A stretch of DNA of 13,503 nucleotides from Verrucomicrobiota bacterium. GTDB lineage: Bacteria; Verrucomicrobiota; Verrucomicrobiia; Chthoniobacterales; UBA6821. A program made the position numbers and the translations under genes. Each line of letters begins with the position of its first letter. Within the stretch, counting starts at the first letter, position 1. The notes beneath the pieces were generated by a model that saw only the letters and a program-made list of their open reading frames with translations, did no database searches and was not told where the DNA came from. Below, one piece after another: positions 993 to 13,143 of this stretch. The stretch covers positions 1-13,503 of the forward strand of contig WBXG01000047.1 in assembly GCA_008932965.1 (NCBI GenBank), read 5' to 3'.

Positions 993-2342
993 TTATTTTA
1001 GATTTTTTTTCAATGTTTGAAGGTCGTCCTTATACATATCAACCGGCTCCTTACTCTTAATAGACTCGAGTTCTGCAGTCTTGGCCTCAACCTCTTTTAG
1101 TAGGTGCTCGTACTTTTCCTTAGTTAGGGAATGAATCGGCATTGTTAGTAGATAATCGTAGGACAAGTTTCTTTTGTCGAACTTAAGTTTTTCCAAGTCC
1201 GTGACAATATCCTGTTTAGGTCGATTGCTTAGCTTGAGCTTTCCATCTATAATTAACTTAATGAATTTGGCACGGTTCGATAGAAACTCCAACTCGTCCT
1301 CGTACTTACCGATAAGATATGCCTTTCGCTTGGAATAGAAGCCTGTTCTGAAATGAACGAAGTACTCGACAAGCTCAGCTGTGCTACTGAAGATTATCAG
1401 CTTTCCACGATCATCAAGGCATGTCAAGTTCTCGGTTTCAGTCTCGATCATTTTCAAGGTCTGATCGAGCTTGCCCTTTGCAACTAGGTCAGCAAGAGTA
1501 GTCCTTGCGAACTTAAGAGTGTAGTTAACTCCATTTGCTGAATTGTCCTCGTATGAGTGAATGATTCCCCTGTCTTGAAGGGAATTAAGATGGGCTTCGT
1601 ATTTTTGAAAAGTGATTGACGGCGGAAGTTCAGAAATCTCAACTGTGGTAGTGTTCGCGATTCGATAGGCTCCACGCATGACGTATTGGTTCGAACCTTC
1701 GACCTGTGAGACTTGTCCAGAGTACTCCTTCCACCAGGGCAGCAGAGGCCCGACCTTTTTACCTGACAGAACCCTAAGGCATGCGTCTACCAAGTCAACA
1801 GGATTGCGATTGAGAATGTTTGTAGCAAAACCGACTGCAATACCAGAGCTGCCATTAAGCAAAACAGTAGGAATGATTGGCAGAAAAAACTTGGGCTCAA
1901 TTTCATTGCCCTCTTCAATTTGATTTTCAAGTAGCTCAAAGTCTTTGTAAAGGAGTCTAAAGTTCTTCGTTAGTTTCGTTGAGATGTACCTCGGCGCGCC
2001 AGCCTCAGGCGATCTAAGAGAGCCGAACTGGCCAATCTCCTCAAGTAGAGGCAATGAGTTCTTAAATGATTGCGCCATTCCAATGATTGCGCCATTGAGG
2101 CTGCCGTCACCATGATGGTAATGCGCTTCAGCTGCGATACGCCCACCTAGCTGAAATATCTTTAGAGGTTTCTCAGATCCGCTTCTCCAAACCCGATCGG
2201 CAATGAAGATTATTTTACGCTGAGTTGGCTTAAATCCATCGATTGCTGAAGGAATTGCTCTATTCTCAAGCGTATACATTCCATAAAGAGCATAGTCCTG
2301 ATCTAGGTACTCAGTTATTGTCTTATTCTGAACGTTTGCCAT
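993..2342 (-). CDS. gp52: Type II DNA topoisomerase, DNA-cleavage (GyrA/ParC-like) medium subunit, T4 gp52-like
   Basis: 449 aa, close to the size of T4 gp52. The N-terminal YALYGMYTLENRAIPSAIDGFKPTQRKIIF matches the GyrA/ParC signature (RAIPxxxDGLKPxQRRIL). GAPRYISTKL aligns with AAMRYTE, placing the catalytic Tyr at residue 119 (codon 1986-1988). Confidence 0.9.
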   Translation of the reverse strand: MANVQNKTITEYLDQDYALYGMYTLENRAIPSAIDGFKPTQRKIIFIADRVWRSGSEKPLKIFQLGGRIAAEAHYHHGDGSLNGAIIGMAQSFKNSLPLLEEIGQFGSLRSPEAGAPRYISTKLTKNFRLLYKDFELLENQIEEGNEIEPKFFLPIIPTVLLNGSSGIAVGFATNILNRNPVDLVDACLRVLSGKKVGPLLPWWKEYSGQVSQVEGSNQYVMRGAYRIANTTTVEISELPPSITFQKYEAHLNSLQDRGIIHSYEDNSANGVNYTLKFARTTLADLVAKGKLDQTLKMIETETENLTCLDDRGKLIIFSSTAELVEYFVHFRTGFYSKRKAYLIGKYEDELEFLSNRAKFIKLIIDGKLKLSNRPKQDIVTDLEKLKFDKRNLSYDYLLTMPIHSLTKEKYEHLLKEVEAKTAELESIKSKEPVDMYKDDLQTLKKNLK

Positions 2343-2358
2343 GTCTTTACTATTATAC

Positions 2359-2724
2359 CTATTTGCTCTTTAAAAAGGAATATGCTGCTTGAAAGGTCAC
2401 CAGTGTAATTGAGATAGACCAGAGTAGATTTAACTGTGAACTCCAGATTCCCATAGCAAAAGAGATTATGAAACAGAGATCAAAAAAGTGCCAGGCATCA
2501 GTAACAAAAACGAGAACAGTTGAGCTTAACGGAAACCTCTCTCTTTGCGATGTGAAAGCTCCATCTGTTTGCCACTTATTTCGCCAGCTTAGCTGATTGT
2601 CCCACCACTGGCGGTTCAGACCCCAGTCCTTAAATTTTGATGTGCTCCAACCAGTCATGATCCGGTCCTTAACCGCCTTGCTGATGCCAGCTAGCATCAG
2701 CATTAGAATTGAAAATACTATCAT
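2359..2724 (-). CDS. Small polytopic membrane protein, Trp-rich loop, unknown function
   Basis: 121 aa. Hydrophobic N-terminus (MIVFSILMLMLAGI), a W-rich loop (WGLNRQWWDNQLSWRNKW), then 2-3 further hydrophobic helices. It fills the gap between the two topoisomerase genes on the same strand. Confidence 0.6.
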   Translation of the reverse strand: MIVFSILMLMLAGISKAVKDRIMTGWSTSKFKDWGLNRQWWDNQLSWRNKWQTDGAFTSQRERFPLSSTVLVFVTDAWHFFDLCFIISFAMGIWSSQLNLLWSISITLVTFQAAYSFLKSK

Positions 2725-2786: not shown

Positions 2787-4622
2787 TTACGCTGACAACT
2801 TTAGCAGTTTTTCCTTACGCACTGAGGAGTCGGGACCAAACCAGTCTGTCAAGCTTGTCGCGTATTGCTTATCGTTCTGCATTTTAACCAGAACAGGATT
2901 ATCAATAATTTCTCGGTACTCGGAATCTTCTAGGGCTGCCAGGCCCTTTTTATATTCGACATCCCAGCCCTTTGCGCCTGTCTTTTTTTCCCAGACAATA
3001 TAATCATCTGCCGTGTAGAACGGTAATATTTCCTTGCCTTTTTTTGCAACAACCAGAGGAGTCATGACCTTAAAGACACGACCCTCATCAAAGAGCTCTG
3101 GCCAATACTTATTGAAGAAGTTCATTAACAAACCGGCTATAGAGTCTCCATCTGGGTCGGCATCAGTATAGATGTAGACCCTGCCGTATCTCAGATCGCT
3201 CGGGGTCTCTCCAAGTCGGATTCCCAATGATGCCATCAGCTGAACAGCCTCTTCATTCTGGATCACACTAGAGTTTGTCATTTCACTCACATTGACAAAC
3301 TTACCCTTTAGTGGAAAGGCTCCGAACGTCTGCGGATTTCTGAACTTACGAACAGCCGATAACGCTGACATTCCCTCAAAGATTCCCAACACGCACTTGG
3401 CTCGATCTTTGCCCTTGGCATCAATGAGCTTAAGCACCTTTTGATTTGAGAGAGACTTATTCAGCTTTCTGAGCTCAGCTCTTTCTTCAGCCTTCTTTTT
3501 CTGCTCGATCCAATCCAATAGGCTCTCAACTACCTCCGATGCAAAAACTGCTTTAATCGTCTTTTCTGAAATTGCATGCGCTGTACCAAAGTCCTTAGGC
3601 TCGGTGATGAGCTTTTCCTTGGTTTGGGAAGAGAACGCTGGATTGATGACTGTGCAGTTAATGAAGAGAAATAGATGATTCTTTATCTCGGAAGGCTTGA
3701 CCTCAACTTTATGGCGCTTTTTGATTAGGGTTCGAAGACCCTCAATAAGCTGGTTAAGCACATAGTTCTCATGAGTACCTCCGTCCTTGGTCTCAATCGA
3801 GTTAACAAAAGAGATTGACTGGAACCCGTCCTTTGATGGACCGAACGCAATTTCCCAGTGATCTGACTTCTCTGAGATTGGATTAGGCGAATAGAGTTCA
3901 ACGTATTCTTTAAAAGTTTTAAACTTGAACTTTTCGCTATTAAAAATGATCTTAAGCTCTGGATTCGCTGCAGCAATATCAATGACACGCTTACGCATCA
4001 TCTTAACATGAGATTGATCTATTTCGGCCATACCAAATCTTTCAATATCTGGAGTATAACTAATCTCAGTAAACCCGTGATTGGATTTAGTAATCTTTGG
4101 GCTAGTCCTGCTTGACATGTTATTCGTGAAGGTTTGCACGAATCGAGTGACGCCGTCAGCAGTTTCCACAGTAAACTGTTTAGAGAAAATGTTTACAAGA
4201 CTTGCGCCCACTCCATTTGTTCCAGCAACAGTTCGACCCTCATCATCATCAAAATTGGAACCGGCTCTGAGGTTTGAAAATATTAACTCTGGGATCCAAA
4301 CCTTGTGCTCCGGATGTTGAACTACTGGTATTCCGCCATTATCCCAAACCTTTATGGAGACATCATCTACCTCTACCCGAATTGTGTTAATTTTACCGGT
4401 GCGCTTGTGTTCATCAACCGAGTTTGAAATGATCTCATCAAATAGCTTAAGAAAGCCAGGGTTGTATGTGAGCTCCTCTTTTTCGTAATTCGAATCTCCA
4501 AGAATCCATTCCTTTGCTGTGTGAGGCTTAGTAGAACCGATGTACATTCCAGGCCTTTTCAAAACGTGCTCGATTTCGTCGAGCAGCTGATACTTCTTAC
4601 TTATTTCCTTTGTTTCCGCCAT
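2787..4622 (-). CDS. gp39: Type II DNA topoisomerase, ATPase + Toprim (GyrB-like) large subunit; fused T4 gp39+gp60 equivalent
   Basis: 611 aa. GHKL ATPase motifs: LKRPGMYIGS, FDEIISNSVDE (N-box), DNGGIPV, GTNGVGASLVN. The QTKEKL transducer lysine motif is present. Toprim motifs: FEGMSA...PLKGKFVNV and YTDADPDGDSIAG. Its length matches the unsplit (T2/T6-type) form rather than the T4 39/60 split. Confidence 0.92.
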   Translation of the reverse strand: MAETKEISKKYQLLDEIEHVLKRPGMYIGSTKPHTAKEWILGDSNYEKEELTYNPGFLKLFDEIISNSVDEHKRTGKINTIRVEVDDVSIKVWDNGGIPVVQHPEHKVWIPELIFSNLRAGSNFDDDEGRTVAGTNGVGASLVNIFSKQFTVETADGVTRFVQTFTNNMSSRTSPKITKSNHGFTEISYTPDIERFGMAEIDQSHVKMMRKRVIDIAAANPELKIIFNSEKFKFKTFKEYVELYSPNPISEKSDHWEIAFGPSKDGFQSISFVNSIETKDGGTHENYVLNQLIEGLRTLIKKRHKVEVKPSEIKNHLFLFINCTVINPAFSSQTKEKLITEPKDFGTAHAISEKTIKAVFASEVVESLLDWIEQKKKAEERAELRKLNKSLSNQKVLKLIDAKGKDRAKCVLGIFEGMSALSAVRKFRNPQTFGAFPLKGKFVNVSEMTNSSVIQNEEAVQLMASLGIRLGETPSDLRYGRVYIYTDADPDGDSIAGLLMNFFNKYWPELFDEGRVFKVMTPLVVAKKGKEILPFYTADDYIVWEKKTGAKGWDVEYKKGLAALEDSEYREIIDNPVLVKMQNDKQYATSLTDWFGPDSSVRKEKLLKLSA

Positions 4623-4638
4623 TAGCGACTATTCTATT

Positions 4639-4836
4639 TTATTTCAGAAAAAGGTTTTGGCCTAATTCGATACTATTTAACGAAGTACGCTTGAGTTTCT
4701 GAGAGACGCGTACGCCAATCTGACCTCTTTGATAGAAATAGTTGTTGATTTTGACTGAAACTATCCAGGTGGAAACTGCTAACATAGCTATGAGCCCAAC
4801 CTGCCAGGCCTTTCCACTGTAATCCGGTATACTCAT
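4639..4836 (-). CDS. Hypothetical small single-pass membrane protein (tentative)
   Basis: 65 aa with one clear TM segment (AWQVGLIAMLAVSTWIVSV) followed by a basic tail. It competes with the overlapping alternative frame 4673-4879. Chosen because of the membrane-protein-like sequence. Confidence 0.35.
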   Translation of the reverse strand: MSIPDYSGKAWQVGLIAMLAVSTWIVSVKINNYFYQRGQIGVRVSQKLKRTSLNSIELGQNLFLK

Positions 4837-4882: not shown

Positions 4883-5563
4883 CTACTCTCCCTTATCTGA
4901 ATTTGCGTACTTGATACCCATTATGGTACCGACTATACTGAACGCGTTGGTTAAAAGAATTCCAACGATATTACTCCATGTGGATGCAATTACTTGAGTG
5001 TCCTTACCGCTATACATTGCAAGAAGGTAGACCCCTGTTGTAATGAAGCCGACTCCAATTATGACGAATAACGAAACCTTAACTATTGTGCCGATTAATT
5101 CGCTTTGCGTTCTACGCTGCAGAATGTCGAGGTCATTTTCAACCTGCTTGCGAGCATTATCCGCAATTTCCCGAGAAGCTTCGGCCTCAAGTCTGGCAGT
5201 CTCAGCGACTTCCTTAGCAGTTTCCGCCTCAATTCTAAGTTTTTCAGATTCGTTACGGGCCTCCTGCGTCTCGTTCATTGCCTCCTGCATTCTGGCCAGA
5301 GATTGTTGTAGCTCCTGCTGATATGACTCGAGAGATTCCTTTGAATTGCTCAGATCCCGATTCTGTTGCTGAATCTGCTTTGTCATGTCGAGCCTCTTCC
5401 TGCGTGTAGCCTGATCCCTTTCGGTGCAGTTAACGATGTACTCAGAAAATTCGACATCATCTTCTGCGTCTATGACCTTTAGGATATTACCTTCTAATCC
5501 AATCTTTCGATCGTTGAACAGCTCAATGAGCTGCTTTCGCAAGGAGACATCGAACTTAAGCAT
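4883..5563 (-). CDS. Tail-anchored coiled-coil membrane protein, unknown function (last gene of the two-component cassette)
   Basis: 226 aa. A long heptad-like E/A/R/Q-rich segment (QQELQQSLARMQEAMNETQEARNESEKLRIEAETAKEVAETARLEAEASREIADNARKQVE) is followed by two C-terminal hydrophobic helices (LIGTIVKVSLFVIIGVGFITTGVYLLAMY; WSNIVGILLTNAFSIVGTIMGI). The start lies 2 nt after the receiver gene stop. Confidence 0.7.
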   Translation of the reverse strand: MLKFDVSLRKQLIELFNDRKIGLEGNILKVIDAEDDVEFSEYIVNCTERDQATRRKRLDMTKQIQQQNRDLSNSKESLESYQQELQQSLARMQEAMNETQEARNESEKLRIEAETAKEVAETARLEAEASREIADNARKQVENDLDILQRRTQSELIGTIVKVSLFVIIGVGFITTGVYLLAMYSGKDTQVIASTWSNIVGILLTNAFSIVGTIMGIKYANSDKGE

Positions 5564-5565
5564 GA

Positions 5566-5997
5566 TTATCTGTAAATCTTGAAGGGTAAAGTCCGCTTGC
5601 GATACCCATCATAATCTTTTTTAAATTCTTCAAGTCGTGGTTCAATTTCGTCGGACTTAATTATCCAGAACTGTGCTCCAGCCTGTAGAGCTTTTGTCTG
5701 CTCCTCACTCTCGTTTGAGGATGAAATTATGCCAATCACGACTCCATTTCCGTAATCGTAATTGATTCGGCGGATGAGCTCAATACCGTCAACTGAGGAG
5801 CCGATTATGTTAAGATCAACGAACACGCACTCAGGCCTACCCTTTGGATCAGTCTTCCAAGCCTGAAAGAGTCTCTCGGTCTCGTCAGTTGTTTTAAGTC
5901 CACGTAGGGAAAGCGTGATGTCGAGCAGAGAACACGCATCCTCAAATACAAGATGAAAGAGGTCCTCATCGTCAACTAGCAGCATTGAATCTATCAT
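5566..5997 (-). CDS. Stand-alone response-regulator receiver (CheY-like REC) protein, no output domain
   Basis: 143 aa. The acidic pocket LLVDDED (D9/D10), putative phospho-acceptor VFVDLN (D61, codon 5815-5817), IISSS (conserved S/T position) and WIIKSD (K114) are all present in canonical order and spacing. The ATGA overlaps the upstream kinase stop (5994-5997). Confidence 0.85.
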   Translation of the reverse strand: MIDSMLLVDDEDLFHLVFEDACSLLDITLSLRGLKTTDETERLFQAWKTDPKGRPECVFVDLNIIGSSVDGIELIRRINYDYGNGVVIGIISSSNESEEQTKALQAGAQFWIIKSDEIEPRLEEFKKDYDGYRKRTLPFKIYR

Positions 5998-7217
5998 TTG
6001 GCTTGGTTTATTTTTATTTTAAGTTTCGTGCCGAACGGTTGAAGTCGCTCGGCCTTTATTGAAAACTCATGCTCTGACAAAATTGCTAAGCAGATACTAA
6101 GACCCAATCCTTCTCCAGCATCAGGTCGATCTGCCTTGTGGGCATGTGGTTTTGAAAACTGCTCGAACTCGGATTGATTCATCCCTCGACCATTATCTTC
6201 TATAACTATATATTGACCATCGGGATAAACTTTCACCTTTTTTTCGATTGAGTCATTGTATCTCAATCCGTTACGAATTAAATTATCGATAGCTGTGCAG
6301 AACAGCGTCGAATTAATTTCTGCGCTCGGTAGATTTGGACTAATCTCAACTTGACTAGAGTATGCAGTCGTTTCCAAAAAGCCGGAAAGAGTTTCGCTTA
6401 GGTTCAGTAGTTCCTTTTGAATCTGACCCTCTCGTTTCACCATGCTAGTAAAGTCATTAACTCTATTGTAAACACGTTGCGTGTGACTTAACCCGTCCTT
6501 GATCATCTTGATGGACCCGTCAATTTTTAGCTTTTTAAGGTCATCCTCTGTTACTCGCCTTTCCAGAGAACTTATACCTCTTGGAATGTACGTGTTAATT
6601 CCTGAATGAAGGTCATGTCGAATTAGCCGTGCCGCGTACTCAAGATAGGAGCCCTTAAGCTGAATGTCTTCGTACTGATCCACTATTTTTTGATTCTGAT
6701 GTAGAATCTTTGATCTTTGCTTTAAGGCAATGAAGAAGAGAGTAATGACAACGATTAGTGAGATTAGTGCAATTACTGCCCAAATCAACCACATTTCATA
6801 AGTCTCGTTTTCTTCGGTCAGCTCACCAGTTTTAATCGATAGATCGACAACCTTTTTCTCCTTTGACAACGACGTTATCGACTGCGCCTTTGCATCAATG
6901 TATTCCTGGGAAGCATTTCTCTTTATGAGCTGGTCCTTTTCCCTAATTAATTGAGCAAGTCTGCTTTCAAGGCTAATCGCAAGGTCCTTCATTTCAGTCG
7001 GCGATAGCTCATCGTAGGTTTCAGGTAGACCTTTTAGAAAATTCTTGTCTCGCTCAATGCTCTGTTGCATTTCAGCCTTAAGAGTGTCCTCCTTTGGAGT
7101 TTCAAAAAGCTGAGATGGATCGACCCATTCAGCCTTAATCTGAGATTCAGCTGAGTCTTGCGGTGCAGCATTTACTGATAGGAGTAAGGCTAGTATTAAT
7201 AATCCAAAACGCTTCAT
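5994..7217 (-). CDS. Sensor histidine kinase with an extracytoplasmic helical/coiled-coil sensor region
   Basis: 407 aa. Signal peptide or TM1 MKRFGLLILALLLSVNAAPQ, about 120 aa of helical exported region, then a TM (WLIWAVIALISLIVVITLFFIAL). H-box LIRHDLHSGINTY (His201, codon 6615-6617), N-box NLIRNGLRYND, G1 IEDNGRGM and G2 GEGLGLSI. Confidence 0.85.
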   Translation of the reverse strand: MKRFGLLILALLLSVNAAPQDSAESQIKAEWVDPSQLFETPKEDTLKAEMQQSIERDKNFLKGLPETYDELSPTEMKDLAISLESRLAQLIREKDQLIKRNASQEYIDAKAQSITSLSKEKKVVDLSIKTGELTEENETYEMWLIWAVIALISLIVVITLFFIALKQRSKILHQNQKIVDQYEDIQLKGSYLEYAARLIRHDLHSGINTYIPRGISSLERRVTEDDLKKLKIDGSIKMIKDGLSHTQRVYNRVNDFTSMVKREGQIQKELLNLSETLSGFLETTAYSSQVEISPNLPSAEINSTLFCTAIDNLIRNGLRYNDSIEKKVKVYPDGQYIVIEDNGRGMNQSEFEQFSKPHAHKADRPDAGEGLGLSICLAILSEHEFSIKAERLQPFGTKLKIKINQAK

Positions 7218-7951
7218 TCAAGATATGGATTTTTTCTAAGAGGGCTTTGATCCTCCTTTAACGGTATCTTGTGCAAATATGGATAGATTAGAGGCCTGAT
7301 TTCCGGATTTTCAGGACTTAACCACTCCCTACTTGGGCCAAGCTGAGGCTCCCAGAACTTTTTACGATGTTGTTCGTAGCTTGAATTACCGTCTCTTCGA
7401 ATTAATGAAATGGTTCCAACGTCTTGATCGAACTGGATTTCGTACATGGTTAAGTCAATCGCCTTAACCGTTGAATCCTGCCAATCGAAGTAAACGTAAG
7501 AAGAGCCAATTGCCGCTTCGAGCATCCAGTCTTCCATCAGATGAATCTTAGCAAGAGAGGAATAAACTGAAATATTTTGATAGCCGGTGTTAACGTCTTC
7601 GCGTTTCTTGCGATCAAACGATTTAATCGTTGAGTCCATCACGAATGAAAATCTTTCAGAGTCAGCACGTCTCTGATCCCTTGATTCAGAAAGCGATTTG
7701 GTTAGGCCAGCGATCGATTCCTTTAAGTCGTTCACCTGTTTGCCAGCCTTTGATGAATTTAACTTATCTGCCCGAGCTGCCCTAAGCTGTCTTTCTTGAG
7801 AGGCCAGGGTTGAATTAATTCGACTAAACTGGGCTGAACTTAGGATTACGACAGAGTCCTCCTTAAAAATCGTACGAAGCGGATATCTGGTCTGGGCTAA
7901 AGAGTTTGCCACAAAGATCAGATTCGCAATCAAGAAAATCTTAATCTTCAT
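7214..7951 (-). CDS. Exported (signal-peptide) protein of unknown function, nested between the two kinase genes
   Basis: 245 aa. Signal peptide MKIKIFLIANLIFVANSLA/Q, a charged helical stretch, then a beta-looking C-terminal half. It overlaps the upstream kinase by 11 nt and the downstream kinase by 4 nt (ATGA). Confidence 0.7.
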   Translation of the reverse strand: MKIKIFLIANLIFVANSLAQTRYPLRTIFKEDSVVILSSAQFSRINSTLASQERQLRAARADKLNSSKAGKQVNDLKESIAGLTKSLSESRDQRRADSERFSFVMDSTIKSFDRKKREDVNTGYQNISVYSSLAKIHLMEDWMLEAAIGSSYVYFDWQDSTVKAIDLTMYEIQFDQDVGTISLIRRDGNSSYEQHRKKFWEPQLGPSREWLSPENPEIRPLIYPYLHKIPLKEDQSPLRKNPYLE

Positions 7952-9581
7952 TTAATTTAATGGTTATTTTGGTGCCACATACTTCATCTTTAGAATTAAT
8001 TACATCACAGTCGATTTTAAATTTATGCTCCTCGATTATCGCAATTGAGATGTTTAGGCCAAGCCCTGTGCCGGATTCACGTTGACCCTCTTTGCGGGCA
8101 TACGGTTTAGAGAGCGCTTTAAATTCTTCACGGCCCAAGCCTCTCCCATTATCTTCGATCAGCAAAGAATTGCCTTCTCGACTAATCTTAACTATCTTTG
8201 ACGCGCTATCGTTGTACTTTAAACCATTTCGAATTAGGTTATCGATTGAAGTACAAAAAAGAGGTTCATTAACCTGAGCTCTTCCCAAATCGCCGATTTG
8301 AACTTGGTCCCTATACGCGGTCGCGCTCAAGTAGTCCATCAGAATTTCTCGTAAATCACAATCCTGCAAATTCAGTACCGCATCTTTTTTAACGAGATTA
8401 GTGAATTCGTAGACTCCCTTGTAAACCTTTTGCGTATGGCGTAGGCCCTCCTTTATCATCTTAAACGGAGCTTCAAGCTTCAGTTCAGCCAGGTCCAAAC
8501 CTTGCATTCTACGGTCAAGCGAACTAATACCTCGTGGAATGTAGGTGTTAATACCGGAGTGCATATCGTGCCTGATTATTTTGGCAGCATGCTCTAAATA
8601 CGTGTTCTTCTTTTCAATTTCTTTCTGCTGATTGAACAGGTTTGTAATATCAGTCGCAATTTTCATGATACGATAGACTTTATTGTCTATATTGAGAATT
8701 GGATTGTATGTTGCGCGTAAGTGTACTAAAGAGCCGTCTTTGCGAACTCGAATAATTTCACCGGAAAAGAATGCACCTGACCTAAGTGTTTCCCAAAAAT
8801 CAGTGTACTCAGGTGATTTACTATAGGCATCCTCAACAAAGAGTCGATGATGTTTACCGACAATTTCAGATTCAGTAGAGTAGCCAAGTGTTTCCAAAAA
8901 TAACTTATTTGCAAAAATGACATTTCCATCAAGGTCAAATTCAATTACTGCATTTGACTGGTTTATAGCAGTCATTCTATTACGAATTTCAACCTCGTTT
9001 TTTCGGTTACCTGTAATGTCTTGGCGAATAGACATAAAACCTTCAAGCTTTCCGTCATGATCAAAGCGGCCTTTAATATGAGTGTCTACGTAATAGAGGC
9101 TTCCATCTTTAGCTCGATTAATGCAGATTTTATTCCAGATTTGCCTGTCTTTGATTACTGTTTTGTACATGTCAGCCCAAAACTCTTTTGGATGAGTTCC
9201 GGAATTTACAATATTGTGATCCTTTCCTAAAACCTCAGCCAACGAGTATCCTGAAACTTGCGAGAACTTCTCATTCACATAAGTTATCTTTCCTTTCGCG
9301 TCAGCTCTTGAGACGATTGCTGCGAGATCTATAAACTTATCCATCTCATCGATTTCAGATTCTCTAGAAAGTAAGGCCTCTTTAAACAGCTTATTGTGAT
9401 TGACTATATCCATTACGATTGTGTAAAAAAACGGAAGAATAAGAGAAATACAAGCGGCTTCGGTAAAGCGAGTCTCCCTGGTGGATTGAATAACTTCAAA
9501 TAGGACCAGTAACTTTATCACAAAAAGAAATATTGTGAATATACTGGATAGCGCGATTGCAAATTTTATACGTGGTCTCAT
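7941..9581 (-). CDS. Membrane-anchored tandem PAS/PAC sensor histidine kinase
   Basis: 546 aa. There are two N-terminal TM helices. PAS1 is about aa 85-190 (ITYVNEKFSQVSGYSLAEVLGKDHNIV...AKDGSLYYVDTHI...GFMSIRQDIT). PAS2 is about aa 205-313 (VIFANKLFLETLGYSTESEIVGKHHRLF...RKDGSLVHLRATYNPI...IMKIATDIT). H-box IIRHDMHSGINTY (His338, codon 8568-8570), N-box NLIRNGLKYND, G1 IEDNGRGLG and G2 GTGLGLNISI. Confidence 0.9.
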   Translation of the reverse strand: MRPRIKFAIALSSIFTIFLFVIKLLVLFEVIQSTRETRFTEAACISLILPFFYTIVMDIVNHNKLFKEALLSRESEIDEMDKFIDLAAIVSRADAKGKITYVNEKFSQVSGYSLAEVLGKDHNIVNSGTHPKEFWADMYKTVIKDRQIWNKICINRAKDGSLYYVDTHIKGRFDHDGKLEGFMSIRQDITGNRKNEVEIRNRMTAINQSNAVIEFDLDGNVIFANKLFLETLGYSTESEIVGKHHRLFVEDAYSKSPEYTDFWETLRSGAFFSGEIIRVRKDGSLVHLRATYNPILNIDNKVYRIMKIATDITNLFNQQKEIEKKNTYLEHAAKIIRHDMHSGINTYIPRGISSLDRRMQGLDLAELKLEAPFKMIKEGLRHTQKVYKGVYEFTNLVKKDAVLNLQDCDLREILMDYLSATAYRDQVQIGDLGRAQVNEPLFCTSIDNLIRNGLKYNDSASKIVKISREGNSLLIEDNGRGLGREEFKALSKPYARKEGQRESGTGLGLNISIAIIEEHKFKIDCDVINSKDEVCGTKITIKLNED

Positions 9582-9626: not shown

Positions 9627-9653
9627 ATAAAAAAGCAGCTCGTAAAGCTGCGC
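9627..9653 (-). terminator. Rho-independent terminator after the lipoprotein gene
   Basis: Minus strand, directly after the TGA stop: GCAGCT-TTACG-AGCTGC (6-bp stem, 5-nt loop), followed by TTTTTT. Confidence 0.6.
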
Positions 9654-9905
9654 TCAGCGGCCGCACACGGTCTTAATGTTGGTCGTCAGCACGACGCCGT
9701 TGACTGTATCCTTTTCAATAATTAGCAGATTATTGAAGGCCTCGGCCTCTTCTTTGGTTGCATCAAATTTCGTAACTGCGGTAACTGGATAACCTGGGAA
9801 TGGTGCATCAGCCGTTCTAGCAACCTCACGTGTGCAAGTGTAGCATTGAGTATCGCAAGAAGATACTAGAATGGGGATCAATACGATAAAGAGGAGGTCT
9901 TTCAT
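9654..9905 (-). CDS. Small Cys-rich lipoprotein (83 aa precursor), unknown function
   Basis: I used the internal Met41 of the 123-aa track ORF. MKDLLFIVLIPILVSS|C is a textbook short signal peptide plus lipobox (V-S-S-C). The mature protein starts CDTQCYTC and ends ..KTVCGR, giving 4 Cys. The longer start at 10025 would sit inside the upstream terminator hairpin. Confidence 0.6.
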   Translation of the reverse strand: MKDLLFIVLIPILVSSCDTQCYTCTREVARTADAPFPGYPVTAVTKFDATKEEAEAFNNLLIIEKDTVNGVVLTTNIKTVCGR

Positions 9906-9910
9906 GTTTT

Positions 9911-9918
9911 TATTTATA
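9911..9918 (-). promoter_or_regulatory. Candidate T4-late-type promoter element TATAAATA upstream of the lipoprotein gene
   Basis: The minus strand reads TGTATAAATAAAAAC-ATG, an exact TATAAATA 5 nt before the start codon. It is the only exact copy I found in the window, so this is speculative and would imply a near-leaderless mRNA. Confidence 0.25.
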
Positions 9919-10010
9919 CAGCGATAAATACAGGCGAACTGTACTTTCTTACCTATGAAATTTTTCTTGAGCCTTTTGGCTATGATTGCCTCTACTTCAT
10001 TTTTTAGACA

Positions 10011-10040
10011 ATAAAAAAGGCCCAAATTTTGGGCCTTTTA
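10011..10040 (-). terminator. Strong rho-independent (bidirectional-shaped) terminator after the 464-aa gene
   Basis: The minus strand reads AAAAGGCCCAAAATTTGGGCCTTTTTTAT. It has a GC-rich stem GGCCCA/TGGGCC, extendable by A-T pairs, a short loop, a T6 tract downstream and an A tract upstream. It lies 27 nt after the stop at 10067. Confidence 0.8.
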
Positions 10041-10066: not shown

Positions 10067-11461
10067 TTACCTCTTTAGGGATTCAATCTGGTCTCTAAGT
10101 TTAGCAGCTTTTACGTAGTCCTCATCATCAATTGCTTGATCGAGCTCGGCTTGTAGCTTTTCAAGCTCGTTCTTAGGCTTCGACTCGGCTCCTGGTTTAC
10201 TAATACCCAGCTGAGCATAAAGGTCGCCTGAGTCTTCGCCTTCTTCTGATTCATCTTCCTGGCCCATCTCCCAATCCTTCATGGCCTTTTCGTACTCGTC
10301 TAGCTCTTCCTGGATCATGCGAATGATCTTTTGAACCACTGCTTTTGCTTTCGCCATAGCAGCGGTGGCTTCAGGAGTCGCAGTCTCGCCCTCACGGAAC
10401 AGAGGAGATGCATCAAAAATATTCTTCATGAGTTCAAGGAACTGTGTATCAGGTAGAACGTTTGCATCGATCATCTTACCCCAAACGTATTCTCGCCCGT
10501 TTTCCATTTGCGAAACCTCAGGGAACTGATTGAGAAAATCGCGAAGATCTGCTGCAGTTATCTTGGCTCGCTTAAGGTCCTGAGCTTCATCTTCTGCTGT
10601 GTCAGCGTTCATGAAGACGGTCTGGATCGCGGTGTCGTCAAGATGAGCAAGACCTCCCTGATTAATTAATCCGTAAATTCCCTTAACTGCTTCGTGGAAG
10701 AGCATTGCTTGATCCATACCAAGAATAATGATACGCGGGTTGGACCCTTCAATTTCCTCTTCTGAACCTTCTTCATCTTGGCCTTCCTCTTCCTGATCAG
10801 ACTCTTTTTTTGGTTTCCATTCAATTCTTGAAACCCCACTAAGCGCATCGCCCTGCTCGATCATGCGCGCTGCGACCTCCTCTGGAATTCGCCAATCCCT
10901 AGCATTACAGATCTCGGTGATCTTAACCAGGTTTTCGACCATTCGCTGAGCGCGCTCATTACCGAATAGCGCGATGAGGCCGTTCACGTTCTCCTCGCTC
11001 ATGAGCATGAGCTTTGAATTAATTGCCTCACCTTGAGCTATCATATTTAGGATCTTACGCTTGTGAACGGCGGTTTTTGTGTCCTCGTTCTCAAGCTCCT
11101 TAATCTTTGGAATTTGAAGATCGTTCTCCTGCTCATGAGCTTTCATTTGAGTCTTCATTTCACGAGGCCCATTTGGAATACGAATGTCCAATTCAACATC
11201 GCCAAGGATCGAGCCGTACTGGTTCATGATGACACTACGGGTCAGATCAACTAGCTGCTTTTCCTTGCCTCGCTGAATTGACTGAACCTCATGCACTGCG
11301 CGCATTAAGGAACCCATATCACGACCAAATCTCTGTTCAACCGCTTGCGCGTTTGCCTCAGCCCGTTTGTTAAGACTTGCAAGGTACATCGGTGAAACTG
11401 CTGGATTCTGACGTATATCAGCCTCATTTAGAGCCTGTTGAAAGGTCTTGAAATTCTTCAT
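10067..11461 (-). CDS. Highly acidic hypothetical protein with a C-terminal UVR (UvrB/UvrC-type) motif
   Basis: 464 aa. Acidic tracts include ESDQEEEGQDEEGSEEEIEGS and MGQEDESEEGEDSGD. The C-terminal LEKLQAELDQAIDDEDYVKAAKLRDQIESLKR (nt 10070-10165) matches the UVR consensus (L..M..A....FE.AA.LRD.I..L). The ATGA overlaps the upstream gene. Confidence 0.7.
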   Translation of the reverse strand: MKNFKTFQQALNEADIRQNPAVSPMYLASLNKRAEANAQAVEQRFGRDMGSLMRAVHEVQSIQRGKEKQLVDLTRSVIMNQYGSILGDVELDIRIPNGPREMKTQMKAHEQENDLQIPKIKELENEDTKTAVHKRKILNMIAQGEAINSKLMLMSEENVNGLIALFGNERAQRMVENLVKITEICNARDWRIPEEVAARMIEQGDALSGVSRIEWKPKKESDQEEEGQDEEGSEEEIEGSNPRIIILGMDQAMLFHEAVKGIYGLINQGGLAHLDDTAIQTVFMNADTAEDEAQDLKRAKITAADLRDFLNQFPEVSQMENGREYVWGKMIDANVLPDTQFLELMKNIFDASPLFREGETATPEATAAMAKAKAVVQKIIRMIQEELDEYEKAMKDWEMGQEDESEEGEDSGDLYAQLGISKPGAESKPKNELEKLQAELDQAIDDEDYVKAAKLRDQIESLKR

Positions 11462-13143
11462 TTTGTTGATTTTTCTTTTTTGATGAGTTCTTCGTAGCGG
11501 GCAATAACATCCTCCGCCTCGGCCTTAGCTGGCTCAGGAGCCTTAAACGGCTGCTTGGTTGGAACCGGGCCTGGCCTCTTTGGCATTGGTCTGGTCGGTG
11601 CAATAGTAGGTGCTGTGCGGGGTTTCACAGCAGGCTCGGCCATCAAGAATTCGTCAATCATTTCTTGATCAATATACTCCATTACCGATTCAATGTCTCC
11701 GGAACTTAGACCAAGCTCCTTAAGTACGTCCTTTTCCTGAGCAAGCACGTTCTTCACTTGAGGAAAGACTAGGCTTGGATCGTCCTTTGCAATCTGATTA
11801 ACTGTCGCGAATATCTTAAGAGTCGCATCTACTATCTTGCGCATGCTCTCTTGATCGTTCTGGTCAATGAGCATCTTCACAAGCATCGCTGAGAACTTTG
11901 AAAGAACTCCTGCCTTGGTGTAGAGATCTACAACCTCCCCCTTTGATAAGTTATCTTTAATTCTGTTCTGAACGATATCTAGAACGATTGCTAGCGATTC
12001 AGGGTTAGTTTCTGGATCAACTGCGTAGCTCTGTTTGACAATATTGAAAAGAACCTCAATTGGCTTCTTCTTGTCGAGGTTAAGCTCGTAAATGACCTTC
12101 TTAACCATCATTTCGCGAGGCAGCTCACGAATGATTGTATTTACAACATCAGCTGGGTATCCCAATTCCGATAAGTGCTTGGCTGGATCGTCAGACTTCT
12201 TAATCATTGCATCGTCGATGTCATGAGAAGTCCGGACTTTGCCCGTGTAGTACACTGTCGTACCGGTAAGAAACATCGGATCGTTCGATGGAATGCCGAA
12301 GTTAAAAATATTAATTTGAACAGCATCATTCGCATAGGTCGCAAAAGATCCACGATTAATGCACCAGTTAGCAACCGAACACAGGTCCTTTTGTGCCTGT
12401 TCAGTACGAACGCTCATTACTAAATATTGGTCATCTGAATAGATGATGCCAGCCTCCGGCTCAAGTTTCTCAATATTGTCTATCTTCTTCTGGAGGTCAA
12501 GATTTGCGAAGCCCTTTAGGTATCTGGAAATGTAGTCTCCAACCTCAGAGATCGGCGAGTTGGCAAAGGCCATAATCTTTTTAAAGAAACGCTTTGTCGC
12601 ATCTTCTCCAAGTTCCTGCATCTTAAACGCGGCTGTGATGAATGGTTGCTTTTCTTCTGGGCTAAGGGACCGATACTGATCTCTAAGCCGTTGTGGCATC
12701 GCATCGATGAACCACTTGGCCTCCCTTGCGCGCTCGATCGTACGAATCGCATCTGTGAGCTGCTCGAAACCGGCTATTCCGTCCTTGGGCTCGCGATTCG
12801 AATAATCGTCGAGAACCTCTTGTGGAGAACGACCTAGCTGAGTAAGTAGTTGCTTTTTATCCTGCATGGTTTGCAAAAGGCCTTTCAGGTCCTCCGCACT
12901 AGCTTTGTGTTCAAAACCAAACTTGAGCAGAGCTGGCAAGTAGTTTGGATAGGTTGAGCCTATTGAAACGATCTCAGCGTACTTCGGATCGGCTAATATC
13001 TTTTCTCGATCCTCTGGACTAAGATCAGCTGTGCTCTGTCCATTCTTTTTTGCGGCGAGTTGGAACATATATTCCTTGGCGGCCTTGGTGCTCTCGCTAA
13101 GGATTTCCCTGTTCCAACCGCTAAATGATTCAATTATTCTCAT
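11458..13143 (-). CDS. Hypothetical protein (561 aa) with a Pro/Ala/Lys-rich low-complexity C-terminal tail
   Basis: Long uninterrupted ORF with a protein-like composition, and I recognise no domain in it. The tail is AEPAVKPRTAPTIAPTRPMPKRPGPVPTKQPFKAPEPAKAEAE. The stop overlaps the downstream start (ATGA at 11458-11461). Confidence 0.7.
   Translation of the reverse strand: MRIIESFSGWNREILSESTKAAKEYMFQLAAKKNGQSTADLSPEDREKILADPKYAEIVSIGSTYPNYLPALLKFGFEHKASAEDLKGLLQTMQDKKQLLTQLGRSPQEVLDDYSNREPKDGIAGFEQLTDAIRTIERAREAKWFIDAMPQRLRDQYRSLSPEEKQPFITAAFKMQELGEDATKRFFKKIMAFANSPISEVGDYISRYLKGFANLDLQKKIDNIEKLEPEAGIIYSDDQYLVMSVRTEQAQKDLCSVANWCINRGSFATYANDAVQINIFNFGIPSNDPMFLTGTTVYYTGKVRTSHDIDDAMIKKSDDPAKHLSELGYPADVVNTIIRELPREMMVKKVIYELNLDKKKPIEVLFNIVKQSYAVDPETNPESLAIVLDIVQNRIKDNLSKGEVVDLYTKAGVLSKFSAMLVKMLIDQNDQESMRKIVDATLKIFATVNQIAKDDPSLVFPQVKNVLAQEKDVLKELGLSSGDIESVMEYIDQEMIDEFLMAEPAVKPRTAPTIAPTRPMPKRPGPVPTKQPFKAPEPAKAEAEDVIARYEELIKKEKSTK

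Follow-up and report, generated by a model that had tools for sequence, protein, structure and literature searches.

Among described signaling systems, those closest to the locus analyzed here are the classical two-component systems (CpxA with CpxP, EnvZ–OmpR), which share with it a His-to-Asp protein pair and HATPase_c domains bearing N, G1 and G2 boxes; the FAD-PAS sensors Aer, MmoS and NifL, which serve a chemoreceptor or nitrogen or methane regulation; and the stand-alone receivers of the CheY, DivK and Spo0F type, which commonly act as sinks or connectors. In T4 lysis inhibition, the phage reads an envelope signal and the cytoplasmic state and delays or triggers lysis via a membrane protein, with RI and RIII acting on holin T by direct protein binding. 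Other phages sense through one-component receptors for peptides or small molecules, such as arbitrium (AimR/AimP) and the VqmA homologue of Vibrio phage VP882, and these govern lysis–lysogeny transcription. In Firmicutes, the chromosomal two-component system LytSR (LytST) controls the cid and lrg genes, lrgAB included, acting transcriptionally via a LytTR DNA-binding regulator, and is linked to holin/antiholin-like membrane proteins and lysis. The lrgAB and cidAB genes encode these holin/antiholin-like proteins (PMC6997555).

The window (the whole 13,503-nucleotide stretch of DNA that we analyzed) is part of the genome of an uncultured jumbo phage (roughly 250 kb), and it carries a cassette whose architecture the first-pass annotation could not match to any characterized phage system; we likewise found no published description of one in the literature. 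Compared with the classical systems, the cassette is viral, has a DHp too divergent for HisKA models, has a receiver without DNA-binding output, and employs two kinases for one receiver. Its paired PAS domains align with those of Aer, MmoS and NifL but are wired to a phage kinase. Whereas LytSR is chromosomal and transcriptional, the cassette is phage-encoded, is proposed to act post-translationally, and consists of proteins unrelated in sequence to those of the LytSR/cid/lrg system. It is like T4 lysis inhibition in concept but not in sequence or architecture; RI and RIII work by direct binding rather than phosphotransfer, and the cassette is linked to lysis by gene neighborhood only. Like arbitrium and VqmA, it is proposed to let a phage choose the course of an infection in response to a sensed signal, but as a kinase–receiver pathway that ends in a membrane output and is found in large phages that appear to be lytic.

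The cassette consists of five minus-strand genes (9581..4883): HK1 (9581..7941; 546 aa), EXP (7951..7214; 245 aa; overlapping HK1 by 11 nt), HK2 (7217..5994; 407 aa; overlapping EXP by 4 nt), REC (5997..5566; 143 aa; overlapping HK2 by 4 nt) and CCTM (5563..4883; 226 aa; beginning after a 2-nt gap), an arrangement that agrees with the five coupled genes annotated previously. Pfam searches upheld the kinase and receiver assignments, finding HATPase_c in both kinases, two PAS domains in HK1 and Response_reg in REC. The catalytic signatures that had been called intact (the H, N and G boxes of both kinases and the pocket residues of REC) were all present and were invariant in the family, and dN/dS in unsaturated pairs of relatives was 0.05–0.15 for all five genes. 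This combination argues that the function of the cassette has been retained, and the substitution pattern indicates that purifying selection keeps all five genes functional. Two elements of the earlier description were not borne out. The module in its basic form has fewer than five genes: gene order in relatives revealed a common core of HK1–REC–CCTM, found in this order at essentially all loci with sufficient sequence, to which EXP and HK2 are an optional insert that is missing in most lineages. Nor is the cassette a phosphorelay, as an Hpt domain and a second receiver are lacking and CCTM is devoid of histidine.

HK1 comprises two TM helices (aa 5–62), an Aer/MmoS-type PAS1 (aa 88–189), PAS2 (aa 211–313), a divergent DHp and a CA domain (aa 446–544), with Pfam matches to PAS_9 (6e-24), PAS (5e-22) and HATPase_c (1.6e-11). 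Its motifs include RHDMHSG, an N box at 447–457, DNGRGL and GTGLGL. Pfam HisKA matched the DHp of neither kinase, and the DHp alone matched nothing among PDB kinases or by profile comparison. We therefore assigned the putative phospho-acceptor, H338 (codon 8568..8570, minus strand), from its motif shape (H-[ED]-[LM]-x-[ST]), its invariance in the HK1 family alignment and its position 110 residues before the N box, a spacing of 110–111 residues in the two kinases. For the CA domain, CpxA, QseC, EnvZ and HK853 were the best PDB and NCBIfam matches. The best PDB match to HK1 was the tandem PAS of MmoS (3EWK, 8e-29), with Aer (7e-18) and NifL also matched, and NCBIfam returned the NifL PAS (4e-30). 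A putative flavin pocket in PAS1 (9018..9218, minus strand) contains H122 (9216–9218), N155 and R186, which align to Aer H53/N85/R115 and MmoS H132/N164/R195, residues of described function (PMC9668731), and are invariant in 18 family members; where Aer has T18, the window has Ala and most relatives have Ser. Judging from these three pocket residues only, PAS1 is probably FAD-bound and would thus report the redox or respiratory state of the host.

HK2 has a signal peptide, an extracytoplasmic region of ~120 aa that evolves rapidly, and a single TM helix (aa 142–165) followed directly by DHp and CA, with neither HAMP nor PAS between them. It matched HATPase_c (7.6e-12) and bears RHDLHSG (with the putative acceptor H201), an N box at 311–321, DNGRGM and GEGLGL. 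Because the DHp helices of HK1 and HK2 are near-identical in alignment, both kinases should feed the same receiver, REC. EXP has a signal peptide ending in SLAQ, a conserved YPxxT..(K/R)xDSVVI motif, a coiled coil and a C-terminal part rich in beta structure. It had no matches in Pfam or NCBIfam, only one word-based homologue, and an AF2 model too poor for use (pLDDT 38.7). Eight relatives were aligned, and the dN/dS of EXP was 0.14. EXP occurs only where HK2 occurs, and it is likely to be the periplasmic partner of HK2, in a pairing that resembles the kinase and periplasmic modulator of the CpxA–CpxP type, although no homology of EXP to CpxP or a named family could be detected. The description of a phage-borne, dual-input system holds, with HK1 as a cytoplasmic PAS sensor and HK2 as an envelope sensor.

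REC matched Response_reg (1e-9; 39 bits against a cut-off of 30.2), and 61 unique relatives all share its D9, D10, D61, S92 and K114; the D61 codon, specifying the phospho-acceptor, lies at 5815–5817 (minus strand). No other protein of the module is as conserved as REC (66–79% identity across all loci). Like CheY, DivK and Spo0F, REC is ~140 aa long, has a full acidic pocket with Ser/Thr and Lys, carries no output domain of any kind, DNA-binding domains included, and is presumed to act by protein–protein contact. Its similarity to those receivers is nevertheless weak (by sequence, the only PDB matches were designed proteins), the cassette provides no phosphorelay partner, and the probable target is a membrane coiled-coil protein rather than a motor switch, kinase or Hpt. 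That protein, CCTM, directly follows REC in the loci compared. It has an N-terminal input domain (aa 1–60), a long helix or coiled coil (aa 37–185) that continues into TM1 and, after a short loop, a TM2 that hardly varies (aa 194–220; 4904–4984), and was modeled by AF2 with a pLDDT of 84.5. Pfam contained no matching family, and no holin family matched in Pfam or PHROGs; BFVD lists a homologue under 'uncultured Caudovirales phage'. In some relatives PAS, PAS-PAS or GAF takes the place of the N-domain while coiled coil and hairpin stay the same (P0382, P0306, P0260), yielding one-component proteins (sensor, coiled coil and hairpin) with neither kinase nor receiver; in others the N-domain is itself attached to a HisKA–HATPase core (P0367, P0375 and, by sequence, P0379), with P0367 occupying the CCTM slot directly after REC. 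These domain swaps, together with the HK1–REC–CCTM order, suggest that CCTM is the output of the pathway.

The neighborhoods of related loci point to what that output might be. In related phages the module adjoins endolysin and holin genes, and 58 of 88 loci have an endolysin no more than a few kb away. When the loci were dereplicated, an endolysin remained no more than four genes away in 30 of 56 clusters (95% identity) and in 12 of 27 (85%), and endolysin–module arrangements vary by lineage. Only about half of the lineages keep the endolysin this near, and inherited synteny could explain part of this proximity. The one-component variants adjoin enzymes of three peptidoglycan-hydrolase families (GH19, glucosaminidase or Amidase_2), with spanin-like and small TM genes nearby. 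The available sequence of the window and of its closest relative, L001, contains no endolysin, so the link to lysis rests on the relatives. Since no holin family matches CCTM and 17 loci have a distinct Phage_holin_10 gene, the role of CCTM may be regulatory, or may have nothing to do with lysis.

We consider it moderately probable that the cassette encodes a phage-specific branched two-component pathway whose output is lysis control via the CCTM hairpin, rather than an effect on the adjacent topoisomerase genes, given that the hairpin module occurs in the lysis cassettes of related phages. In this model, HK1, held by its two TM helices, would read a cytoplasmic signal through PAS1 and PAS2, while HK2 and secreted EXP would read an envelope or periplasmic signal through the fast-evolving extracytoplasmic region. 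HK1 would autophosphorylate on H338 and HK2 on H201, and phosphate would pass to D61 of REC. As REC has no DNA-binding domain, phosphorylated REC would most likely act by binding CCTM at its small N-terminal domain, and the signal would run along the long CCTM helix to the conserved two-helix membrane hairpin, whose likely output is a holin-like or holin-regulating activity. Of the outputs proposed earlier (replication, lysis timing or host physiology), the comparative evidence favors lysis, whereas the link to replication is not conserved.

That link had been suggested by the genes downstream, which are T4-type topoisomerase II subunits as annotated: a gp39/gp60-like large subunit, TopoL (2787..4622, minus strand; phrog_543 at 1e-191, with Pfam domains), and a gp52-like medium subunit (993..2342, minus strand; phrog_551 at 5e-144, Pfam DNA_topoisoIV at 3e-87), both belonging to the phage backbone. 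As had been noted, a terminator-like hairpin with a T-run (GCAGCTTTACGAGCTGC; 9627..9651, hairpin 9651..9635, minus strand) stands immediately upstream of the cassette, and none was predicted on the minus strand between cassette and topoisomerase genes, the sole exception being a weak intragenic site at 8861..8843. Two backbone genes, p561 and p464 (the latter with a C-terminal UVR motif; 10067..13143, minus strand), directly precede TopoL in related phages. The closest TopoL relatives (82–83% identity, on 253-kb viral contigs) have the order p561–p464–TopoL with a ~100-nt spacer and no cassette at this site, which identifies the cassette, by gene-order comparison, as a lineage-specific insertion between two backbone genes.

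The first-pass annotation read the cassette as fused to this replication module, perhaps sensing conditions to tune phage DNA replication through co-transcription and coupling with the topoisomerase II genes. The cassette does lie directly upstream of TopoL on the same strand with no predicted terminator between, and L001 has the same adjacency, but we regard a functional link as very unlikely: these are the only two of 89 loci in which the cassette adjoins topoisomerase, the closest TopoL relatives do without it, REC has no DNA-binding or other output domain, and CCTM is separated from TopoL by a 260-nt spacer containing a 65-aa ORF (4639..4836, minus strand; one hydrophobic segment) that is not conserved in L001. 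Less improbable, though still unlikely, is an action on host signaling, with REC as a phosphate sink or the kinases phosphorylating host regulators, and with CCTM a mere anchor or scaffold. The strong conservation of REC would be expected for fit to a conserved partner, and sinks and connectors are common among stand-alone receivers; however, the DHp is unlike that of the cellular kinases found (no close GTDB homologue, no HisKA match), favoring a closed phage-internal pair, the one-component relatives retain the hairpin without kinase or receiver, as befits an output rather than an anchor, and the CCTM N-domain holds the slot after REC even when fused to a different output. Between these two in probability, and decidedly doubtful, is a superinfection or defense switch, in which HK2 and EXP sense envelope damage or a second infecting phage and the hairpin protein excludes that phage or aborts the infection, independently of the normal timing of lysis. 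Sensor-triggered two-TM effectors are common in abortive-infection systems, and EXP (22–28% identical between lineages) and the HK2 sensor evolve as fast as is typical of conflict interfaces. Nonetheless, PADLOC gave no meaningful match, most lineages have the core module without HK2 and EXP, selection on both genes within close pairs is purifying rather than diversifying, and the proposal overlaps with lysis inhibition, from which it is not clearly separable.

Least credible of all is that the contig is bacterial chromosome and the cassette an ordinary host two-component operon, perhaps in a prophage remnant. The contig is filed in NCBI under a Verrucomicrobia MAG (KAB2643432-37), and the 13.5-kb sequence contains no capsid, terminase or tail genes (Pfam, phage families), the genes by which viral origin was to have been confirmed; yet binning of a 13.5-kb contig is weak evidence, and the phage-borne assignment is upheld through the contigs of relatives. 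HK1 relatives (57–70% identity) occur on 204 IMG/VR contigs, the longest of 322 kb, and genes on IMG/VR contigs no longer than 253 kb share 76–83% identity with TopoL, whereas 185,579 GTDB species genomes contained no close HK1 homologue, the matches there being confined to the PAS region, not exceeding 42% identity and lacking a neighboring REC or CCTM. The split topoisomerase is itself of phage type, with its best GenBank phage matches (55–56%) in uncultured phages of 635–642 kb; GenBank phage records contain none of the 253-kb contigs. Neighbors of the cassette in relatives include genes for holin, endolysin, SmpB, an aminoacyl-tRNA synthetase and a family-B DNA polymerase. In the window and nearly all of the aligned relatives, the signal peptides of EXP and HK2 carry Gln at the predicted cleavage site or beside it, which fits the Bacteroidetes Q-rule (PMC5837995) and does not fit Verrucomicrobia. 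None of the 13 window genes has a Shine–Dalgarno sequence. The phage host is probably a Bacteroidota bacterium.

The inserted segment also includes a small lipoprotein gene (MKDLLFIVLIPILVSSC...; 9654..9905, minus strand), which lies between two terminators and is absent from L001 and L177. A TTG-extended ORF of 123 aa would overlap the upstream terminator, making the ATG at 9905 the likelier start.

Every large ORF of the window lies on the minus strand, including the five genes of the cassette. These genes encode HK1 (9581..7941), a tandem-PAS kinase that starts with two TM helices; EXP (7951..7214), a secreted protein with an N-terminal signal peptide; HK2 (7217..5994), a periplasm-facing kinase with a signal peptide, one TM helix (residues 142-165) and the kinase core directly thereafter; REC (5997..5566), a receiver assigned to Pfam Response_reg; and CCTM (5563..4883), a coiled-coil protein with a two-helix membrane hairpin that belongs to no Pfam family. 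The 546-residue form of HK1 agrees with both the NCBI record and the N termini of homologues; the JGI call starts from a GTG and has 526 residues. Computing the gene junctions from the ORF coordinates reproduced exactly those given in the first-pass annotation: an 11-nt overlap between HK1 and EXP, 4-nt overlaps between EXP and HK2 and between HK2 and REC, and a 2-nt gap before CCTM. Our terminator scan of the window likewise bore out the placement of a terminator just before the cassette and of none that is convincing before the topoisomerase genes: a minus-strand hairpin with a T-run lies upstream of the cassette (9651..9635) and a stronger minus-strand terminator upstream of the neighboring lipoprotein gene (10039..10015), and no comparable minus-strand site was found between the cassette and the topoisomerase genes. 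A sigma-70 promoter scan of the window was uninformative (33 sites versus 26 expected), and tRNA and Rfam scans returned zero matches.

Pfam searches with the five translations recovered two PAS domains in HK1, HATPase_c in both kinases (45.0 bits for HK1 and 46.1 bits for HK2; cut-off 26.4 bits), and Response_reg (PF00072) in REC (39.0 bits, E 1e-9; cut-off 30.2 bits), but left EXP and CCTM unmatched and gave no HisKA match at E<=1 in either kinase. The N, G1 and G2 boxes were found in both HK1 and HK2 and are invariant across their relatives; the REC residues that form the acidic pocket (D9 and D10), the phospho-acceptor Asp (D61), and the conserved Ser/Thr and Lys (S92 and K114) are invariant among 61 unique sequences. 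The claim that all catalytic signatures are intact therefore held for these elements, with one qualification that concerns the H box. The DHp, the domain with the phospho-acceptor His, matched zero kinases when it alone was searched against the PDB, and profile comparison (hhalign) with a HisKA-bearing relative aligned only the catalytic ATPase (CA) domain, leaving the H box unaligned. Because these models did not recognize the DHp, we assigned H338 of HK1 and H201 of HK2 as the predicted phospho-acceptor histidines of the putative kinases from the invariant motif R-H-D-M/L-H-S-G-I in both DHps, which resembles H-E-L-R-T-P-L, from the N box 110-111 residues downstream, and from the variability of an alternative nearby histidine, H331, which is Tyr in some HK2 sequences. 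A search of the PDB with the REC sequence returned designed proteins only and hence identified no natural structural relative.

The cassette had been described as a phosphorelay. A multi-step relay (His-Asp-His-Asp) calls for an Hpt or Spo0B-like phosphotransfer protein or for a second receiver. However, Pfam detected no Hpt or second Response_reg domain in any window protein, and CCTM, which has zero histidines, was ruled out as an Hpt protein. Because there is neither an Hpt protein nor a second receiver, the system is, as read from its sequences, a branched two-component pathway rather than a phosphorelay. In unsaturated pairs of relatives, dN/dS was 0.05-0.15 for all five cassette genes, indicating that each is maintained by selection, and we consider it very probable that the cassette is a functional phage-encoded two-component pathway.

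We compared the window with 88 related loci. The order HK1, REC, CCTM was universal among loci with enough sequence, with identities to the window of 71-79% for REC and 45-68% for CCTM. The rest of the gene order was less general: approximately 20 loci have an insert between HK1 and REC, which consists of EXP followed by HK2 or, in four loci, of HK2 alone, and topoisomerase II lies downstream of the module in only two loci, the window and L001, the latter with the three-gene form of the module. The identification of the downstream genes as gp39/gp52-like was well founded, in that these T4-type topoisomerase II genes matched phrog_543 (1e-191) and phrog_551 (5e-144), and their Pfam domains (DNA_gyraseB, Toprim, HATPase_c and DNA_topoisoIV) are those of split large and medium subunits of the gp39/gp60/gp52 type. 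The proposed fusion of the cassette to a T4-type replication module, on the other hand, proved to be an insertion. In the closest relatives of the topoisomerase locus (L177, L191 and L201), whose large-subunit gene, TopoL, is 82% identical to that of the window, the backbone genes p561 and the p464 homologue are followed by TopoL after a ~100-nt spacer, without a cassette. These cassette-free relatives imply that ~5.4 kb, comprising the lipoprotein gene, the five cassette genes and a 65-amino-acid ORF, were inserted between p464 and TopoL in the window's lineage. As no terminator is predicted, transcription may continue into TopoL; this cannot, however, be part of a conserved design, and regulation of the adjacent replication genes by the cassette is very unlikely.

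The window is a complete 13,503-bp contig, the proteins of which (KAB2643432-KAB2643437) are filed at NCBI under a Verrucomicrobia bacterium MAG. Whether it is viral or a host island was judged from its relatives and from searches of cellular genomes. We searched 50,697 GenBank phage records, IMG/VR, and one genome for each of 185,579 GTDB species. HK1 has >100 relatives of ~540 amino acids with 56-76% identity, and its relatives are encoded on viral contigs in IMG/VR (204 contigs, the longest of 322 kb). In the GTDB species genomes, by contrast, the scan found only PAS-region similarity (<=42%) and a few Bdellovibrio kinases at 27-29%, and no REC or CCTM homologue near any match. Genes on IMG/VR contigs as long as 253 kb share 76-83% identity with TopoL; the best matches of TopoL in the GenBank phage records, which include none of these IMG/VR contigs, were 635-642-kb uncultured phages (55-56%). 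Those phage records gave zero matches to the window by megablast and only generic CA or PAS matches to HK2 and HK1 by tblastn, and none of them carries the module. The neighborhoods of the relatives contain Phage_holin_10, endolysin, SmpB, aminoacyl-tRNA synthetase, PRPP synthetase and family-B DNA polymerase genes, together with long runs of genes without a Pfam match, and the sole confident BFVD match of the CCTM model was an uncharacterized protein of an 'uncultured Caudovirales phage'. Virion hallmark genes (capsid, terminase, portal and tail) were not found on the 13.5-kb contig, and ten large proteins from the flanks of related loci, scanned with PHROG, matched DNA-metabolism and unknown families and included zero virion genes; PADLOC found zero defense-system matches. 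The contig itself does not supply the virion genes that would mark it as viral, but there is strong evidence that the cassette is of phage origin in its close relatives, which were found solely on viral or phage-like contigs and not in the GTDB species genomes.

Two features of the sequence bear on the host. The EXP and HK2 signal peptides of the window, like those of nearly every aligned relative, carry a glutamine at the predicted cleavage site or beside it, and this Q-rule is specific to Bacteroidetes (PMC5837995). All 13 window genes lack a Shine-Dalgarno sequence and have A-rich leaders instead. The host is thus probably a member of the Bacteroidota, and gene content, relatives and Q-rule signal peptides together make it most likely that the contig is a fragment of a Bacteroidota jumbo phage that was mis-binned, with the practical consequence that the NCBI Verrucomicrobia MAG entry most likely holds a phage fragment.

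What the two kinases might sense can be partly read from their N-terminal regions. The best PDB match of the HK1 PAS1-PAS2 region was the tandem PAS of the redox sensor MmoS (3EWK, 8e-29), followed by Aer (8DIK, 7e-18) and NifL (2GJ3, 5e-11), and NCBIfam identified a NifL PAS at 4e-30. By sequence, the region belongs to the Aer/MmoS/NifL PAS group. The flavin-pocket residues H53, N85 and R115 of Aer correspond to H132, N164 and R195 of MmoS (PMC9668731). HK1 residues H122, N155 and R186 align to the three Aer residues and are invariant in the family, which makes a flavin-based redox or energy input to PAS1 likely; the position equivalent to Aer T18 is Ala or Ser in the HK1 family. In HK2 the extracytoplasmic region is variable and a cytoplasmic sensor domain is absent. 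The DHps of HK2 and HK1 are almost identical in alignment, which points to duplication of the kinase core and convergence of both putative kinases on one shared receiver. EXP was found only where HK2 was found. It has a conserved motif right behind the signal peptide, YPxxT..(K/R)xDSVVI, and is only 22-28% identical between lineages; a word-based homologue search gave one match, and the resulting AF2 model (pLDDT 38.7) was left out of the fold search. Because four loci (L019, L027, L043 and L076) have HK2 (453-463 amino acids) directly after HK1 without an EXP gene, HK2 does not strictly need EXP.

REC lacks an effector domain, and the next gene is always CCTM. The AF2 model of CCTM (pLDDT 84.5) consists of a small N-terminal helical domain, a continuous helix (37-185) extending into TM1 and, after a short loop, TM2, which is the most conserved segment of the protein (STWSNIxGILLTNAFSIVGTIMGxKYA). 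The model had no meaningful fold match in the PDB, and CCTM gave zero matches to holin families in Pfam, PHROGs and NCBIfam. An exhaustive profile search defined a compact CCTM family (191 representatives, E<=1e-10) and also found informative variants with domain swaps at either end. In some variants the coiled coil and hairpin follow a different sensor, either GAF (P0260), PAS-PAS (P0306) or a PAS domain (P0382 and P0302). In others (P0367, P0375 and P0379) the CCTM N-domain sits on a kinase core with HATPase_c; of these, P0367 and P0375 have a weak Pfam HisKA match, and the H box of P0379 matches by sequence. At L170 and L171 a protein of this N-domain-kinase type stands directly behind HK1 and REC, exactly in the position of CCTM. 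The simplest reading of these swaps is that CCTM is modular, with an N-domain that would be the receiver-responsive input, a long helix that would serve as a signaling helix, and a hairpin that would be the output, which other phages may drive directly by PAS or GAF sensors.

In 58 of 88 loci, a PG_binding_1+GH19 endolysin gene is found no more than a few kb from the module, often as its immediate neighbor (directly behind CCTM or directly ahead of HK1, on either strand), and is followed in 17 loci by Phage_holin_10, a gene separate from CCTM. After dereplication, the endolysin was at most four genes away in 30 of 56 clusters (95% HK1 identity) and 12 of 27 clusters (85%), compared with a chance expectation that we take to be a few percent for a single-copy gene in a ~250-kb genome. 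The arrangements of module and endolysin vary between lineages. The one-component variants provide independent support for the link: a GH19 endolysin lies two genes from P0306, GH19-like and glucosaminidase genes lie five genes from P0260, and an Amidase_2 enzyme lies three genes from the divergent P0382, with i-spanin-like, o-spanin-like and small TM proteins between the variants and the hydrolase genes. The hairpin module therefore travels with three unrelated peptidoglycan-hydrolase families. No endolysin was found in the available sequence of the window or L001; its position in the closest topoisomerase relatives, ~2.3 kb beyond the medium-subunit gene TopoM, would put one just past the left end of the window, which is a lead and not a finding. 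On balance, we slightly favor the CCTM hairpin, acting in lysis, as the output.

These observations can be combined, tentatively, into a virus-specific phosphotransfer pathway that times lysis, although we regard this full scheme as less likely than not. The energy state of the infected cell would be read by the flavin-PAS kinase HK1, and a signal from outside or from superinfection by the envelope-facing kinase HK2; each kinase would phosphorylate the CheY-like REC, which in its phosphorylated form would gate a holin-like or holin-controlling membrane hairpin of a new, sensor-coupled class. The one-component PAS or GAF fusions would represent the same hairpin in the lysis cassettes of other phages. 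Phage lysis timing is usually ascribed to a built-in holin clock, and only a few dedicated phage sensors are known (T4 RI, arbitrium and VqmA-Phi); phosphotransfer control of lysis would be a mechanism not described for any phage. The nearest functional analogies are the control of the holin-like lrg and cid genes by LytSR, a cellular system that acts on transcription, and T4 lysis inhibition, which operates by direct binding without phosphotransfer. Each part is of a known kind (a class-I-like kinase CA, a receiver and an Aer/MmoS-type PAS), but in the literature that we searched, including surveys of huge and jumbo phages, we found no description of a phage-encoded histidine kinase or two-component system of this assembly, in agreement with the earlier statement that no characterized phage system is known to have this architecture.

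A large and widespread environmental group of jumbo phages thus keeps its own complete kinase-receiver pathway under strong purifying selection, with no close cellular counterpart and with swappable sensor parts (PAS, GAF and envelope sensor). Should lysis control be the output, phage release would respond to host redox state and envelope cues, which would bear on burst timing, on the release of Bacteroidota carbon in lakes, and on ideas of viral decision-making. The conserved coiled coil and hairpin would then be a new small effector module, directly testable in heterologous hosts.

Several further observations concern variation among the loci. L021 and L024 are 99.3% identical in HK1 and REC and 83% in CCTM (dS 1.24), which indicates that a recombination breakpoint separates REC from CCTM and that alleles of the hairpin protein have been exchanged. 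In L170 (3088-6463) and L171 (2236-5611), HK1 (632 amino acids) and REC are followed by the soluble kinase P0367, with the CCTM N-domain as its sensor, possibly forming a kinase-receiver-kinase cascade. A conserved one-TM protein of ~185 amino acids often lies between CCTM and the endolysin (L004, 14647-15204, and 10 other loci), and the same protein occurs near the topoisomerase region of the cassette-free loci L176, L179, L180, L184 and L187.

The remaining genes of the window are small or belong to the backbone. The lipoprotein gene (minus strand, ORF 9654-10025), flanked by terminators on both sides, encodes an 83-amino-acid, Cys-containing protein (MKDLLFIVLIPILVSSC...) from an ATG at 9905, which is the likelier start because the 123-amino-acid ORF from a TTG overlaps the strong terminator. 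Its absence from L001 and L177 indicates that it arrived with or beside the inserted cassette. In L169 and L173 the lipoproteins that adjoin the hairpin protein resemble o-spanins, but no homology between these and the window lipoprotein was found. Directly after CCTM, a minus-strand ORF of 65 amino acids (4639-4836) combines a single hydrophobic segment (VGLIAMLAVSTWIVSV) with a basic tail, a shape like that of holins; it is not conserved in L001, gave zero family matches, and may be spurious or may encode a small membrane protein. Upstream, p561 and p464, an acidic protein with a UVR motif at its C terminus (Pfam UVR, 1.5e-9), occupy 10067-13143 on the minus strand; both are conserved and lie directly upstream of the topoisomerase genes in related phages. 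Between the topoisomerase subunit genes of this phage lineage lies a conserved multi-TM protein of ~121-126 amino acids without a family match (2359-2724, minus strand, in the window; 14946-15314 in L001; 11836-12216 in L177), and after TopoM, on the minus strand, lies a gene for a SAM-dependent methyltransferase-like protein (341-982; phrog_21658 at 1e-14).
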